From: Escherichia coli
Lineage (GTDB): Bacteria; Pseudomonadota; Gammaproteobacteria; Enterobacterales; Enterobacteriaceae
DNA: 64,000 bases
Direction: 5' to 3' (one strand)
Assembly (NCBI RefSeq): GCF_030013595.1
Contig: NZ_CP122768.1
Shown here piece after piece: positions 4,616-61,871 of this stretch. The position numbers and the translations under genes are program-made. Positions within the stretch are counted from its first letter, which is position 1, and every line of letters starts with the position of its first letter. The notes below the pieces were generated by a model. That model had not been told where the DNA came from. It saw only the letters and a list, made by a program, of their open reading frames with translations, and ran no database searches.

Positions 4616-6103
4616 GTGGACATTAGAGACTGGCTACCAGAATTTCAAGTTTCAGCAGAAACAGATCGGGACTTACAGACCTATTTTTTTAAGCTACCGG
4701 CGATAAAGGATATTATTGAAAGTAGGGCTTGGTTGGTTCTTGGAAGAAAAGGTACTGGTAAAACAGCCATTTATGAACACCTTAGAAGAGGAAAACCAGC
4801 CAATCTCAACGGGTTTTACTCAGTATGTCTAAATTTTAGTGACTATCCATGGCCAGCCCATCAACTTTACAAGGATGCAATGGCTGGAGAACTTTCCGCT
4901 TATCAAAAAAGTTGGATGTATCTTTTTTATATTAAGGCATTATCTAAACTTATTGAAATAAAAAATGATGCTGGAGAGACTTTAAACAAAGATCTAACGT
5001 GGGCACATAATTATATCAAAACTATCTTTGGTAGTCCCGACCCAACTCTTAGGGAGGTTTTGTTTTCAAAAATAACCAGATTAAAAACCATAAAAGGGCC
5101 CAGTGCTGGTCTTAATGAAGTATCATTGGACGCAGGTGAAATTTCGTTAGAGGAAGTTGCTGAGAATGCTCAGCTAAAGCAAAAGCTAAGAGCTAATGCT
5201 TTCACATTGCTTACGTATTTTGAAAAAATTTTTAAAGATAACATTGGTAATGAAAAAATAATTATCGCCCTTGACCAATTAGACGAAAACTGGCTAGAGG
5301 GGCAAATTGAAGAATATAGTAAGGTTTTAATAAATCTGCTAAATGTCTGTAGAAACATAGCATCTGATGAACGCCTCAATGATAAATTAAAAGTCATTCC
5401 CTTCCTACGAACGGATATTTATCATTCTTTGAAATTCAATGATAAAAACAAATTATTGCAAGATAGTGCTATCATAATCTCATGGAATGAAAATAATCTA
5501 AACGATATGTATTATGAGAGGATAAAGAAATACAAACCTAATGATCTCATATTAGATGACGAAAAGGACAGATCTGGGAAAGTATTTGAGGTTTCATTCG
5601 TTAGGCAGGGGACTCCTCCATTTAAATATATATGTCGCCGTTCTTTCTTTAGGCCTAGGGATATTATTGTCTACTTCAACAAAATTAGGGCATGTCATAA
5701 AAATAATGTCTCAGGTCTTTACACTTCCAATGAGCTTTATGAAGCTGACCGTGAAGCATCTATAAGTGTGTACAATGAGGTGATTGATGAATGGTCCAAC
5801 CAATTCCCTGAAATTGAGAACTTACTAACTGTTCTTCAAACTATCCAAGTAGAAACATTCGATTTTAATGATTTCTCCGAGAAGTGCCGTAATGAATTTG
5901 CAGGTATTTCTGATGGGGTGATACGTCAATATATCAACTTCCTGTTTGATAACTCACTTATCGGACAAAAAAAACAAGGTAGATGGGAATACGTAAGTAG
6001 TTTGCCTAACTTAAAAATTAATCTACAAAATGAGTTTAGGACACATCATGCTTTAAAATACAGGTTGCATTTAATAGAAAGCAGACCGAGCCAAAATATT
6101 TAG
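4616..6103 (+). CDS. AAA+/STAND-like P-loop NTPase (495 aa), AT-rich moron; candidate defence gene
   Basis: GTG start 6 nt after AAGAGG; Walker A GRKGTGKT (4742..4765); Walker B-like IIIALDQLDE (5258..5287); AT-rich codon usage unlike flanking phage genes. Confidence 0.8.
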   Translation: MDIRDWLPEFQVSAETDRDLQTYFFKLPAIKDIIESRAWLVLGRKGTGKTAIYEHLRRGKPANLNGFYSVCLNFSDYPWPAHQLYKDAMAGELSAYQKSWMYLFYIKALSKLIEIKNDAGETLNKDLTWAHNYIKTIFGSPDPTLREVLFSKITRLKTIKGPSAGLNEVSLDAGEISLEEVAENAQLKQKLRANAFTLLTYFEKIFKDNIGNEKIIIALDQLDENWLEGQIEEYSKVLINLLNVCRNIASDERLNDKLKVIPFLRTDIYHSLKFNDKNKLLQDSAIIISWNENNLNDMYYERIKKYKPNDLILDDEKDRSGKVFEVSFVRQGTPPFKYICRRSFFRPRDIIVYFNKIRACHKNNVSGLYTSNELYEADREASISVYNEVIDEWSNQFPEIENLLTVLQTIQVETFDFNDFSEKCRNEFAGISDGVIRQYINFLFDNSLIGQKKQGRWEYVSSLPNLKINLQNEFRTHHALKYRLHLIESRPSQNI

Positions 6104-6266: not shown

Positions 6267-8141
6267 GTTAACATTACGCGTCCTGCAAGACGCTTAACAT
6301 TAATCTGAGGCCAATTTCATGCTAGACACATGTAGGTTAGCCTCTTACGTGCCGAAAGGCAAGGAGAAGCAGGCTAGTGTTAACACCAAGCTGTAATGTC
6401 CCCTTTGAACCATTCTAAAATGTCCCCAGACAATTCTCTGGGGGATTTTTCATGATCAAAGAGACTGTTACGATGAGTCATAAGGAACTCCACCGACTTC
6501 AGATTATTCAGGAGTCAATTAATCGACATATTACTCAGGAACAAGCTGCGGCACGCATTGGCATTTCTATTCGGCAGGTTAAACGTCTGGTGCAACGGTA
6601 TAGAAATGAAGGGCCTTCTGGTCTGGTTTCCCACCGACGTGGAAAGCGTCCTAATAATTCCTTTTCTACTGAATTCAGAGCAACAGTAATTTCACTCCTC
6701 AAAGGCCGTTACGCTGATTTTGGACCTACGTTTGCGTGCGAAAAATTGCGCGAGATACACGGTTTATCTTTATCCGTTGAAACTCTCAGAAAGTGGATGA
6801 TAGAAGAGGGGTTATGGCGTGAACGCCGTCGTAAAATTGCCCGTATATATCAACGCCGCATGCGACGACCATCTTACGGTGAACTGATCCAGATTGATGG
6901 CTCACCTCATGACTGGTTTGAAAATCGAGGCCCCAGATGTACACTGATCGTTTTCATTGATGATGCCACCAGTGCGTTGATGGCGTTGCGTTTTGTGCCT
7001 GCTGAAACAACCCGGGCTTACATGGAAACCCTCCGGGGTTACCTTAATGATCATGGCGTACCGCTCGCTCTCTACTCTGATAGACACAGTATATTCAGGG
7101 TAAATAACCCAGAGCGGGAAGGTGAGCTGACCCAGTTCACTCGTGCGATAAAGACACTGGGCATCGAGCCAATCCATGCCAACAGCCCGCAGGCAAAAGG
7201 GCGGGTAGAGCGCGCCAATCAGACACTACAGGACAGGCTGGTCAAAGAAATGCGGCTTCAGAATATCAGTGATATTGAAACAGCAAATGCATGGTTGCCG
7301 ACCTTTATTGAAGCCTATAACAACCGGTTCGCTACGTCGCCTCGTACTACTGATAATGCTCATCTTGATGAGCACCATTCTGAAGAGGAACTGGGTTATA
7401 TCTTCAGCCTACAGGCGAAGCGCGTTCTGTCTAAAAATCTCACTTTCCAGTACAAAAGCAGTGCGTTTCAGGTACGCAGTGAGGGCCGGGGATATCGACT
7501 TAGGCATTCGGTTGTTACTGTATGCGAGAACTTTGACGGTGAAATTAACGTTCTGTATGACGGGAAAGCGCTGGGCTGGGAAAAGTATGTTGATGGCCCG
7601 GAGCCTATACCACTGGATGATGAAAAGAGTGTCCATGAACGAGTGGATAATGCCCGTATTGATTTACGCTCAAAATACTATGTTAAACCTAAAGCTGACC
7701 ATCCCTGGCTTACGCGCCGAACGCAAAGTCATCAGCAAGTTAAGCCCCCGAAGTTACCTAAAAAGAAGCCTGATCCCGATAAAAAAGATTGAAACCAAGA
7801 TCGATTCGGTTGAGTGCATATCCATTCATAGGGTAGATTCTTAAGTCGCGTTTCTGGTGTTCATTTTCGGGTGGTTTGTTACTTGTTTTACCGGGGATAT
7901 GCCAGAAACGCGCTGAGTCAGTCTGGGCGGTGCGCGTAATGAGGCGTTATGGTAAATAGCCTATGCTAATGTCCGCTAAGAGCAAGAAGCGGAAGTTGGC
8001 AGTTTTGTGGACTGTCCCCACAAAAGTGACTACAGAAATAGTTGCAATTCATAATTGATCATGGGTTGTCAGTTAAACTCGTGGCGATTTAAATAGACTA
8101 ATTGGGAGTGCGTCCATTACTTATATCTTGTAATGTTAACT
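6267..8141. mobile_element. Insertion sequence (single-ORF DDE/rve transposase; IS481 or ISNCY-like); boundaries approximate
   Basis: 446-aa transposase ORF; 12-bp inverted match AGTTAACATTAC at 6267..6278 and 8130..8141 proposed as termini; no clear target-site duplication. Confidence 0.45.
6452..7792 (+). CDS. Transposase with N-terminal HTH and integrase-core (DDE) domain
   Basis: 446 aa; HTH (AARIGISIRQVKRLV) and rve-like core (..IQIDGSPHDWF.. ..LYSDRHSIF..); basic lysine-rich C-terminus. Confidence 0.85.
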   Translation: MIKETVTMSHKELHRLQIIQESINRHITQEQAAARIGISIRQVKRLVQRYRNEGPSGLVSHRRGKRPNNSFSTEFRATVISLLKGRYADFGPTFACEKLREIHGLSLSVETLRKWMIEEGLWRERRRKIARIYQRRMRRPSYGELIQIDGSPHDWFENRGPRCTLIVFIDDATSALMALRFVPAETTRAYMETLRGYLNDHGVPLALYSDRHSIFRVNNPEREGELTQFTRAIKTLGIEPIHANSPQAKGRVERANQTLQDRLVKEMRLQNISDIETANAWLPTFIEAYNNRFATSPRTTDNAHLDEHHSEEELGYIFSLQAKRVLSKNLTFQYKSSAFQVRSEGRGYRLRHSVVTVCENFDGEINVLYDGKALGWEKYVDGPEPIPLDDEKSVHERVDNARIDLRSKYYVKPKADHPWLTRRTQSHQQVKPPKLPKKKPDPDKKD

Positions 8142-8228
8142 ATCAGAAATGATACAAAGATAATATGTCTTTAAAGAAAAGGCTGATGGCGAAAAGTGGC
8201 CCGATGAGGGCCACAATACGGCTGTCAC

Positions 8229-8561
8229 TTAGACGTAAATATCAATGGTGCCAGCGGTATTTGTATCGTCTTTTTTCTCTTCTTTTTTATCAGGCTGAAC
8301 TGTCGCGTCTTCATTCTTTTTCTCTGCCTGCTGCCTTAACAACTGCTCCAGTTGAGCCCAGAGGCTTTCAATTTGCTTCTGTACCAATGCAGCCATTTCT
8401 TTTTTCTGCTGTGTCGTCATCCCCTCTTCCGATGAGATTTTCCCAAGCTTTTCAGTCAGCACCTGAATTTGTCTTGTGATTTTGGCTATTTCTGATGTTC
8501 CTTCCGGGGCGGAGTTGTTTGAAATAACGGTTGAGGTATTTCCCTGAATTGTGACAGACAT
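8229..8561 (-). CDS. flxA: FlxA (sigma-28-dependent prophage protein)
   Basis: 110-aa product MSVTIQGNTSTVISNNSAPEGTSEIAKITRQIQVLTEKL... matches remembered FlxA. Confidence 0.8.
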   Translation of the reverse strand: MSVTIQGNTSTVISNNSAPEGTSEIAKITRQIQVLTEKLGKISSEEGMTTQQKKEMAALVQKQIESLWAQLEQLLRQQAEKKNEDATVQPDKKEEKKDDTNTAGTIDIYV

Positions 8562-8584
8562 AGATTTCTCCTTTTAAAAAAGCA

Positions 8585-8611
8585 CTATCGGCATGCACAA
8601 AAAAATCTTTA
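8585..8611 (-). promoter_or_regulatory. Sigma-28 (FliA) promoter of flxA
   Basis: Reverse strand TAAAGATT (8604..8611), 11-nt spacer, GCCGATAG (8585..8592), close to consensus TAAAGTTT-N11-GCCGATAA, just upstream of flxA. Confidence 0.6.
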
Positions 8612-8763
8612 ATCGTATTTCTTGTGTCATTAATTGTTTGATGTTCAGATTGTTTTCCTCGCGGGCTGGCGCGCCTCAGAAAGTAAAGCTTGTTGACAGG
8701 GGTAAACGTTCGGCAATAATTTTCTGCCGCATGCGGGTGTTGCATAAAACGTGTTACGTTCCT

Positions 8764-9069
8764 TTATCGACAGGTCAGGTCACCGCTCACCCGCCGACGA
8801 GAAAGCAACACTGACATGCTAAAGCAAAAAATAGATGAATAAGTTGAGTTGTGCATATGTAGCCTGACCGTCACAAAGTATATGGTGTCTGTACCAGTAA
8901 GATGATGGCCGGACTCTTTAAAAACGAGCTGACCTGCACAATACAGGATGGACTTAGCAATGGCTGCTCCTGGCAGAAAGCGGACAGTGATCACCGTTCT
9001 TACGACTACTTTCTGACTTCCTTCGTGACTTGCCCTAAGCATGTTGTAGTGCGATACTTGTAATGACAT
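8764..9069 (-). CDS. YdfV-like hypothetical ORF (101 aa), doubtful
   Basis: ORF of the length remembered for ydfV between flxA and relB; low-complexity product, overlaps relB operator. Confidence 0.25.
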   Translation of the reverse strand: MSLQVSHYNMLRASHEGSQKVVVRTVITVRFLPGAAIAKSILYCAGQLVFKESGHHLTGTDTIYFVTVRLHMHNSTYSSIFCFSMSVLLSRRRVSGDLTCR

Positions 9070-9082
9070 TTGTAATTACAAG
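9057..9082. promoter_or_regulatory. relBE operator/promoter palindrome (relO)
   Basis: CTTGTAATGACATTTGTAATTACAAG, inverted repeat just upstream of relB. Confidence 0.6.
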
Positions 9083-9093
9083 AGGTGTAAGAC

Positions 9094-9333
9094 ATGGGTA
9101 GCATTAACCTGCGTATTGACGATGAACTTAAAGCGCGTTCTTACGCCGCGCTTGAAAAAATGGGTGTAACTCCTTCTGAAGCGCTTCGTCTCATGCTCGA
9201 GTATATCGCTGACAATGAACGCTTGCCGTTCAAACAGACACTCCTGAGTGATGAAGATGCTGAACTTGTGGAGATAGTGAAAGAACGGCTTCGTAATCCT
9301 AAGCCAGTACGTGTGACGCTGGATGAACTCTGA
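9094..9333 (+). CDS. relB: Antitoxin RelB
   Basis: 79 aa MGSINLRIDDELKARSYAALEKMGVTPSEALRLMLEYIADNERLPF... matches RelB. Confidence 0.9.
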   Translation: MGSINLRIDDELKARSYAALEKMGVTPSEALRLMLEYIADNERLPFKQTLLSDEDAELVEIVKERLRNPKPVRVTLDEL

Positions 9334-9620
9334 TGGCGTATTTTCTGGATTTTGACGAGCGGGCACTAAAGGAATGGCGAAAGCTGGGCTCGACGGTACG
9401 TGAACAGTTGAAAAAGAAGCTGGTTGAAGTAATTGAGTCACCCCGGATTGAAGCAAACAAGCTCCGTGGTATGCCTGATTGTTACAAGATTAAGCTCCGG
9501 TCTTCAGGCTATCGCCTTGTATACCAGGTTATAGACGAGAAAGTTGTCGTTTTCGTGATTTCTGTTGGGAAAAGAGAACGCTCGGAAGTATATAGCGAGG
9601 CGGTCAAACGCATTCTCTGA
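9333..9620 (+). CDS. relE: mRNA interferase toxin RelE
   Basis: 95 aa MAYFLDFDERALKEWRKLGSTVREQLKKKL... matches RelE; start overlaps relB stop. Confidence 0.9.
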   Translation: MAYFLDFDERALKEWRKLGSTVREQLKKKLVEVIESPRIEANKLRGMPDCYKIKLRSSGYRLVYQVIDEKVVVFVISVGKRERSEVYSEAVKRIL

Positions 9621-19143: not shown

Positions 19144-22824
<3,681 letters not shown>

Positions 22825-45429: not shown

Positions 45430-46890
45430 ATGGGAAATAATTTGTTATCAGCAAAAGCGACACTCCCTGTTTATGATCGTAATAACCTGGCCCCAAGAAT
45501 TGTTCATTTAGGCTTTGGTGCATTTCACCGTGCGCATCAGGGCGTGTATGCCGATATTCTTGCTACAAAACATTTCAGTGATTGGGGATATTATGAGGTC
45601 AATTTAATCGGCGGCGAACAGCAAATTGCCGATTTACAACAGCAAGATAATCTTTATACCGTTGCGGAAATGTCGGCCGATGCGTGGACGGCTCGCGTCG
45701 TTGGCGTCGTTAAAAAAGCCTTGCACGTACAGATTGATGGCTTAGAAACCGTGTTGGCTGCGATGTGTGAACCGCAAATCGCGATTGTCTCTCTGACAAT
45801 CACCGAAAAAGGGTATTTCCACTCTCCGGCGACCGGACAGTTAATGCTCGATCACCCGATGGTCGTTGCCGACGTACAAAATCCCCACCAGCCGAAAACT
45901 GCAACAGGGGTGATTGTCGAGGCGCTGGCTCGCCGTAAAGCGGCAGGACTTCCCGCATTTACCGTCATGTCATGTGACAACATGCCAGAAAACGGTCATG
46001 TTATGCGCGACGTTGTCACTTCCTACGCGCAAGCTGTTGATGTAAAACTGGCACAATGGATCGAAGAAAACGTGACTTTCCCATCAACAATGGTGGACCG
46101 TATTGTGCCCGCAGTGACGGAGGATACGCTGGCGAAAATCGAACAACTTACCGGTGTGCGCGATCCTGCTGGCGTTGCCTGTGAACCTTTCCGCCAGTGG
46201 GTAATAGAAGATAACTTTGTTGCCGGACGTCCGGAATGGGAAAAAGCGGGAGCCGAACTGGTTAGTGATGTGCTGCCTTATGAAGAGATGAAGTTGCGCA
46301 TGCTCAACGGCAGTCATTCATTCCTGGCGTATCTGGGGTATCTTGCCGGATATCAGCACATTAATGACTGCATGGAAGATGAACATTATCGTCATGCAGC
46401 GTATGCCTTGATGTTGCAGGAACAAGCGCCGACGTTGAAAGTGCAGGGTGTTGATTTGCAAGATTACGCTAACCGATTAATTGAACGCTATAGCAACCCG
46501 GCGCTACGTCATCGAACCTGGCAGATTGCGATGGATGGCAGCCAGAAATTGCCACAGCGGATGTTGGATTCTGTTCGCTGGCTTCTGGCGCATGACAGCA
46601 AGTTCGATCTGCTGGCGCTGGGCGTCGCAGGTTGGATGCGTTATGTCGGTGGTGTTGATGAACAGGGAAATCCGATAGAAATCAGTGACCCACTGTTACC
46701 TGTTATTCAGAAGGCTGTACAAAGTAGTGCCGAAGGGAAAGCGCGCGTCCAGTCATTGCTGGCGATTAAGGCGATCTTTGGTGATGATTTGCCAGACAAT
46801 AGCTTGTTTACTGCAAAAGTGACGGAAGCGTACTTGTCTTTATTAGCGCATGGTGCGAAAGCGACCGTGGCGAAATATTCCGTGAAGTAA
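45430..46890 (+). CDS. ydfI: Mannitol-dehydrogenase-family oxidoreductase YdfI
   Basis: 486 aa with N-terminal Rossmann motif [12 protein letters not shown]. Confidence 0.85.

Positions 46891-58730: not shown

Positions 58731-61871
<3,141 letters not shown>

Follow-up and report, generated by a model that had tools for sequence, protein, structure and literature searches.

A FliA (sigma-28) promoter upstream of the prophage gene flxA in Escherichia coli and its conservation among FlxA-like genes

The window, by which we mean the whole stretch of Escherichia coli DNA that was analyzed (64 kb), contains a Qin-type lambdoid prophage at positions 1-46700, in which lysis, terminase, portal, capsid, tail, tail-fibre, and pinQ genes were found and the end of which adjoins a truncated ydfJ gene. 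The flxA gene, the focus of this study, is carried by this prophage. In E. coli K-12 MG1655, the flxA region is located in Qin, where it is flanked by relBE-hokD-rem-ydfU-ydfT(Q) and, on the opposite side, by ydfW-dicC-dicA-dicB. Between the cro-like dicC gene and the Q antiterminator gene ydfT, flxA and ydfV were the only genes on the minus strand, all others being on the plus strand. The prophage showed 98.5% identity over 22 kb to Escherichia phage PhiR42_1 (from ECOR13), in which flxA carries the annotation "FliA regulated". Positions 1-23771 of the window were 99.56% identical (BLAST) to strain HCP5S3_I2, a close relative and the closest RefSeq strain; the head protease gene of this strain is interrupted by an IS66 insertion that was absent in the window. 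Since the prophage is close to full length, in contrast to the remnant of roughly 20 kb in K-12, and its head protease gene is free of the IS66 insertion, it may, judging from its gene content, still be inducible, unlike K-12 Qin.

The product of flxA was assigned to the FlxA-like family (PF14282) with a score of 53.8 bits (cutoff: 26.3) over residues 7-101, and to PHROG 11044, which is labelled as function unknown. FlxA was still among the uncharacterised K-12 genes in 2024 (PMC11551758), and in the literature on the function of FlxA, or on its link with phage morons or sigma-28, only regulon lists were found. The putative ydfV gene (8764-9069, minus strand; 101 amino acids) immediately precedes flxA; no match to YdfV was found in Pfam, PHROG, or PADLOC, and no defence-system model of PADLOC fitted FlxA or YdfV. 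On the 3' side of flxA, a hairpin with a 7-bp GC-rich stem (-15.6 kcal/mol; z = -2.57) was found as a likely intrinsic terminator; it is followed by only four T residues and was not called by a simple terminator scan. The G+C content of the flxA cassette was 42.5% versus 49.9% for the prophage. The elements of this transcription unit are summarized in Table 1.

Table 1. Positions of the flxA gene and its putative expression signals in the window
Feature	Position	Strand	Remarks
-35 element TAAAGATT	8604..8611	-	7/8 against the consensus TAAAGTTT
Spacer TTTTTGTGCAT, 11 nt	8593..8603	-	Length matters, not sequence
-10 element GCCGATAG	8585..8592	-	7/8 against the consensus GCCGATAA; GCCGATA core complete
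Predicted transcription start region	8575..8579	-	Approximately 6-10 nt past the -10 element; usual sigma-28 geometry
Shine-Dalgarno sequence AAGGAG	8568..8573	-	6 nt 5' of the flxA ATG
flxA coding sequence, 110 amino acids	8229..8561	-	PF14282; PHROG 11044; RefSeq annotation
Likely intrinsic terminator GTGGCCC-TCATC-GGGCCAC, then TTTT	8192..8214	-	15 nt past the flxA stop codon

An earlier note, made without database searches, had read a FliA-like motif on the reverse strand at 8585-8611, immediately upstream of flxA, and the coordinates and sequence that it gave were exact. Along the minus strand from 8611 to 8585, 14 of the 16 consensus positions were matched with the correct spacer of 11 nt, and the two mismatches were the last base of the -10 element (G, not A) and position 6 of the -35 element (A, not T). 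The distance from the end of the -10 element to the flxA ATG (8561) was 23 nt on the same strand, with the AAGGAG sequence between them, and the identity of the open reading frame as FlxA was supported by both PF14282 and RefSeq. The placement of a flagellar-regulon promoter within prophage DNA also held, since flxA is inside the Qin-type prophage and the identical K-12 sequence is bound by FliA (see below). A sequence-only reading had thus placed an alternative-sigma promoter to the base, and the flxA promoter may serve as a positive control in genome scans of this type.

The flxA promoter was the sole match in the 64-kb window to the consensus (TAAAGTTT-N11-GCCGATAA) at up to two, or up to three, mismatches, and a match at up to two mismatches was found in 4 of 100 shuffled windows. 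Weight matrices were constructed from 52 FliA ChIP-seq motifs (PMC4183435, Table 2), with flxA left out. In the matrix scan, which had been proposed as a check on the motif, the flxA site scored 19.4 bits (matrix from all sites) and 21.4 bits (strong sites only), ranking 11th and 9th, respectively, among the 52 published FliA sites. The runner-up in the window scored 13-14 bits, 5-8 bits lower than the flxA site. Of 200 random 64-kb sequences (first-order Markov; mean maximum, 14.5 bits), two reached the score of the flxA site. Other matrix matches in the window, including those at 61359-61386, 45531-45558, and 19955-19982 (13-14 bits), were at the random level and were rejected as background. 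The flxA promoter shares its boxes, 11-nt spacing, and sigma factor with the class 3 flagellar promoters of E. coli and Salmonella (fliC, tar, motA, flgM, and tsr), and its score is within their range (19-21 bits; rank 9-11 of 52). It differs from them in driving a prophage gene that is unneeded for motility: in studies on E. coli K-12, FlxA was dispensable for this function.

The first description of the flxA promoter is reportedly that of Ide and Kutsukake in 1997 (Gene 199:19-23). The 581 bp at 8180-8760, which comprise the promoter, gene, and likely terminator, showed 100% identity to the K-12 MG1655 sequence, and 1201 bp around flxA were 99.9% identical. Among 5426 complete E. coli genomes, matches to the 1.2 kb around flxA, annotated as flxA, ydfV, and relB, were found in 1282, and the region was present at an identity of at least 99% in about 1200. 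Not only the 28-mer of the promoter and the 581-bp region, but also the gene product and the flanking ydfV, relBE, hokD, and ydfW were identical between K-12 Qin and the window, which differed from K-12 Qin in having an IS1202/ISEsa1-like transposase ORF downstream of flxA.

Because of this identity, the experiments published on K-12 apply to the same sequence. By ChIP-seq, the FliA-binding motif of flxA in MG1655 was the same 28-mer (TAAAGATTTTTTTGTGCATGCCGATAGT), with a score of 16 (Fitzgerald et al. 2014, PMC4183435, Table 2). Expression in a fliA mutant had been set beforehand as the test on which the reading of the earlier note could fail, and FliA dependence was upheld: normalised flxA RNA was 280 in motile MG1655 and 2 in the fliA deletion (PMC4183435). 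Furthermore, flxA changed by -28.4-fold in a fliA deletion and by +8.2-fold five minutes after the induction of sigma-F (Zhao et al. 2007, PMC1935009), a SELEX peak of 23.2 with the sigma-28 holoenzyme was found in the ydfV-flxA spacer (Shimada et al. 2017, PMC5493296), and flxA was up 35-fold alongside flagellar genes in flhDC-activating mutants (PMC11237407). FliA binding and the dependence of more than 99% of flxA RNA on fliA are, therefore, established by published work on the identical K-12 sequence. The FliA promoter of flxA is real, functional, and ordinary, a textbook FliA target outside the flagellar genes; it has been known since 1997 and was re-confirmed by ChIP-seq, RNA-seq, and SELEX. 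The retention of the promoter in viral contigs, its conservation throughout the family, and the chromosomal gene between gltX and yfeR, all described below, are a small addition to this.

Among viral contigs with a relative of FlxA (IMG/VR), the promoter was present in 40 of 40, and 22 nt separated the end of the 28-mer from the ATG. It was identical to that of the window in 33 contigs and variant in the other seven. Five of the variants were confined to the spacer (three with a single-base change and two with an Enterobacter-type spacer), while in two the G1 or C2 position of the -10 element was changed (ACCGATA and GTCGATA); both of these forms are present among the validated FliA sites (PMC4183435). 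In diverged flxA homologues, with amino acid identities of 85%, 65%, 64%, and 45%, the boxes were kept while the spacers were unrelated in sequence and constant in length: TAAAG or TAAAT as the -35 element and GCCGATA or GACGATA as the -10 element, 22-25 nt before the ATG, with scores of 18.7-21.6 bits. Among the diverged homologues, the TAAAG of the -35 element was kept in L005-L009 and L012; it was also kept in all 40 viral contigs. In one Enterobacter species, a flxA gene of 85% identity, preceded by the same promoter, was found in a small island beside icd (L005, 2885-6339; also L006-L008); this island contains a phage integrase gene, a DUF3800 gene, and an IS fragment, and its integration site differs from that of Qin.

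A survey of chromosomes, in which one genome per species was searched with a four-sequence FlxA alignment as a query, revealed FlxA-like loci in 60 species of about 20 genera of Enterobacteriaceae and relatives (L016-L075), including Citrobacter, Kluyvera, Enterobacter, Buttiauxella, Kosakonia, Leclercia, and Lelliottia, and also Cedecea, Atlantibacter, Pluralibacter, Pseudocitrobacter, Phytobacter, and Dickeya. The synteny of gltX, tRNAs, flxA-like, yfeR (LysR), yfeH, ypeB, and ligA was conserved in 55-58 of the 60 loci. These proteins belong to the same Pfam family as Qin FlxA, with a similar size (107-117 amino acids) and the C-terminal motif IDIY[VI]; however, the amino acid identity to Qin FlxA was only 35-41%, and no donor of the Qin gene can, therefore, be named. 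The chromosomal copies have a fixed position in the core genome and usually a -35 element of the TCAAG type, whereas the Qin copy is in a phage and has one of the TAAAG type.

The 300 nt upstream of each chromosomal gene, placed relative to the tblastn match, were scanned with the matrix, with windows from the same loci as controls. Predicted sigma-28 sites of at least 10, 13, and 15 bits were detected in 59, 52, and 44 of the 60 loci versus 3.6, 0.6, and 0.1% of control windows, respectively, the 60 loci being orthologues and, hence, non-independent samples. Their distance to the ATG was mostly 25-30 nt. GCCGATA was invariant (2.0 bits per position) across the 59 distinct promoters, while the spacer and flanks showed 0.15-0.33 bits; taking the best matrix match per locus biases such a logo toward GCCGATA, a bias for which the null windows control. 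The -35 element was (T)CAAG- or TAAAG-like, with TCAAG in most copies. In the aligned promoters, the constancy of GCCGATA against a free spacer and flanks appears as a clear phylogenetic footprint, and the FliA dependence of the chromosomal flxA-like copies is predicted on this basis.

The chromosomal gene was also found in E. coli itself, in 667 of 5426 genomes. In strain PCN033 (L076, 5845-6241; WP_000201404.1), it lies in the same gltX-flxA-like-yfeR-yfeH-ligA synteny, and its predicted promoter (TCAAGTTC-N11-GCCGATAT; L076, about 5845-5872), 27 nt before the ATG, scored 18.1 bits versus at most 9.9 bits elsewhere in 12 kb. At the gltX-yfeR position, xapRBA-yfeN is located in K-12 instead of the flxA-like gene.

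These distributions bear on the origin of the Qin promoter. If the promoter had arisen or been recruited inside the prophage after integration, flxA would be a phage gene domesticated into the flagellar regulon. The sigma-28 promoter is a short element, and new FliA sites form easily, even within genes (28 of 35 novel sites were intragenic; PMC4183435); the difference in the -35 element, TAAAG in Qin flxA and TCAAG in most chromosomal copies, is also in keeping with such an event. We nevertheless consider it unlikely, because every FlxA-family gene examined, whether phage-borne or chromosomal and down to approximately 35% protein identity, had a sigma-28 promoter in the corresponding position upstream of the ATG, and inheritance of the promoter together with the gene is a far more parsimonious account than its separate emergence in each lineage. 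Moreover, the TAAAG-type -35 element is found in non-Qin copies as well (L012 and L061).

It is still less probable that the promoter, although intact, is a silent relic in the strain of the window, in which the flagellar regulon would be off or fliA defective. The 64-kb window is without flagellar genes, and many E. coli isolates show poor flhDC expression (background in PMC11237407); on the other hand, the promoter does not differ in sequence from the active one of K-12, is conserved at an identity of at least 99% in about 1200 genomes, and is kept in the 40 viral contigs. Lastly, a chance resemblance to the consensus, with flxA transcribed from a sigma-70 promoter or by read-through from ydfV, can practically be set aside and is ruled out by the effect of deleting fliA that was published for this same sequence in K-12: although 0.57 matches per 64-kb window are expected by chance at up to three mismatches and ydfV lies upstream on the same strand, only 0.04 are expected at the two mismatches observed, the matrix score stands clear of the rest of the window, the identical K-12 site is bound by FliA both in living cells and in vitro, both boxes have been kept despite the divergence of the spacer, and no sigma-70-like site was found by a consensus scan of the flxA strand at 7800-9400.

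We are, therefore, almost certain of the joint reading that 8585-8611 is the sigma-28 promoter of flxA with published FliA dependence, that it is a family trait, and that it likely belongs to a phage-captured cassette. No finding spoke against the assignment of the promoter itself. It is regarded as a family trait because chromosomal and phage-borne FlxA-like genes carry the same kind of promoter. RNA polymerase bearing FliA recognises TAAAGATT (-35) and GCCGATAG (-10), 11 nt apart. At sigma-28 promoters, transcription usually starts approximately 6-10 nt past the -10 element, and a start a few bases downstream would give flxA a leader of approximately 14-18 nt with a strong ribosome-binding site. 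The mRNA would be monocistronic and most likely end at the hairpin (8214-8192). In the FlhDC-FliA-FlgM cascade, completion of the hook-basal body releases FliA from FlgM; flxA would be activated as part of the late, class 3 set of flagellar genes, only once fliA has been induced by FlhDC and the anti-sigma factor FlgM has been exported. Its expression would be independent of the regulatory circuit of the phage itself. The gene is oriented antisense to the early-right operon of the phage.

With regard to origin, control by sigma-28 would be ancestral to the FlxA-like family rather than an invention of the prophage, and the phage most likely acquired flxA and its promoter together as a self-contained cassette ("moron"). 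A comparison of the phage-borne and chromosomal copies indicates that the gene and promoter were probably captured as a unit. The architecture of flxA is that of a phage moron: the promoter is independent of phage circuits, the orientation and G+C content are unlike those of its neighbours, and homologues are found outside phages. Similar to the bor and lom genes of phage lambda, flxA forms a one-gene unit that has its own promoter and a likely terminator, runs antisense to a phage operon, is lower in G+C content, and is expressed from within the prophage under the control of the host. It differs in that its promoter uses sigma-28, an alternative sigma factor of the host, in place of sigma-70, and it illustrates neatly how phage cargo can come under such a factor.

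On balance, we slightly favor a broader interpretation, in which FlxA-like genes at the fixed site between gltX and yfeR may be an old, vertically inherited, and so far unremarked member of the enterobacterial sigma-28 regulon, and Qin-type lambdoid phages may carry a captured, fast-diverging paralogue with its promoter intact. The prophage gene would then be expressed strictly in step with flagellar assembly in the host, and its product would possibly act on the flagellum or on processes linked to motility for the benefit of the phage. The presence of a sigma-28 promoter with FlxA genes on the chromosome, in prophage remnants, and in viral contigs points to a conserved role linked to the flagellum, and the family-wide promoter and the chromosomal paralogue could guide work on the function of FlxA.

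Several other features were noted around flxA. In the ydfV-flxA spacer, a sigma-70-like site (TTGACA-16 nt-AATAAT; 11 of 12 positions) was found on the plus strand at 8693-8720 as a consensus match only; it runs antisense through ydfV toward relB, which begins approximately 370 nt downstream of the site. A P-loop ATPase of 495 amino acids is encoded at 4616-6103 (plus strand), in the interval that separates the phage replication genes from the IS; it was annotated in RefSeq as "Sll1717 family" and assigned to PHROG 13260 (labelled as function unknown); a weak match to the candidate defence model PDC-M28C (E = 4e-5) makes it a possible prophage-borne defence gene. After an ISEsa1-like transposase pseudogene, an uninterrupted ORF of 446 amino acids with HTH and rve_3 transposase domains (6452-7792, plus strand) runs in frame into the 49-amino acid "protein YdfW" of RefSeq (7643-7792). 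Since the sequence around ydfW is shared between K-12 and the window only from 7608 onward, ydfW of K-12 looks like a 3' remnant of this transposase ORF.
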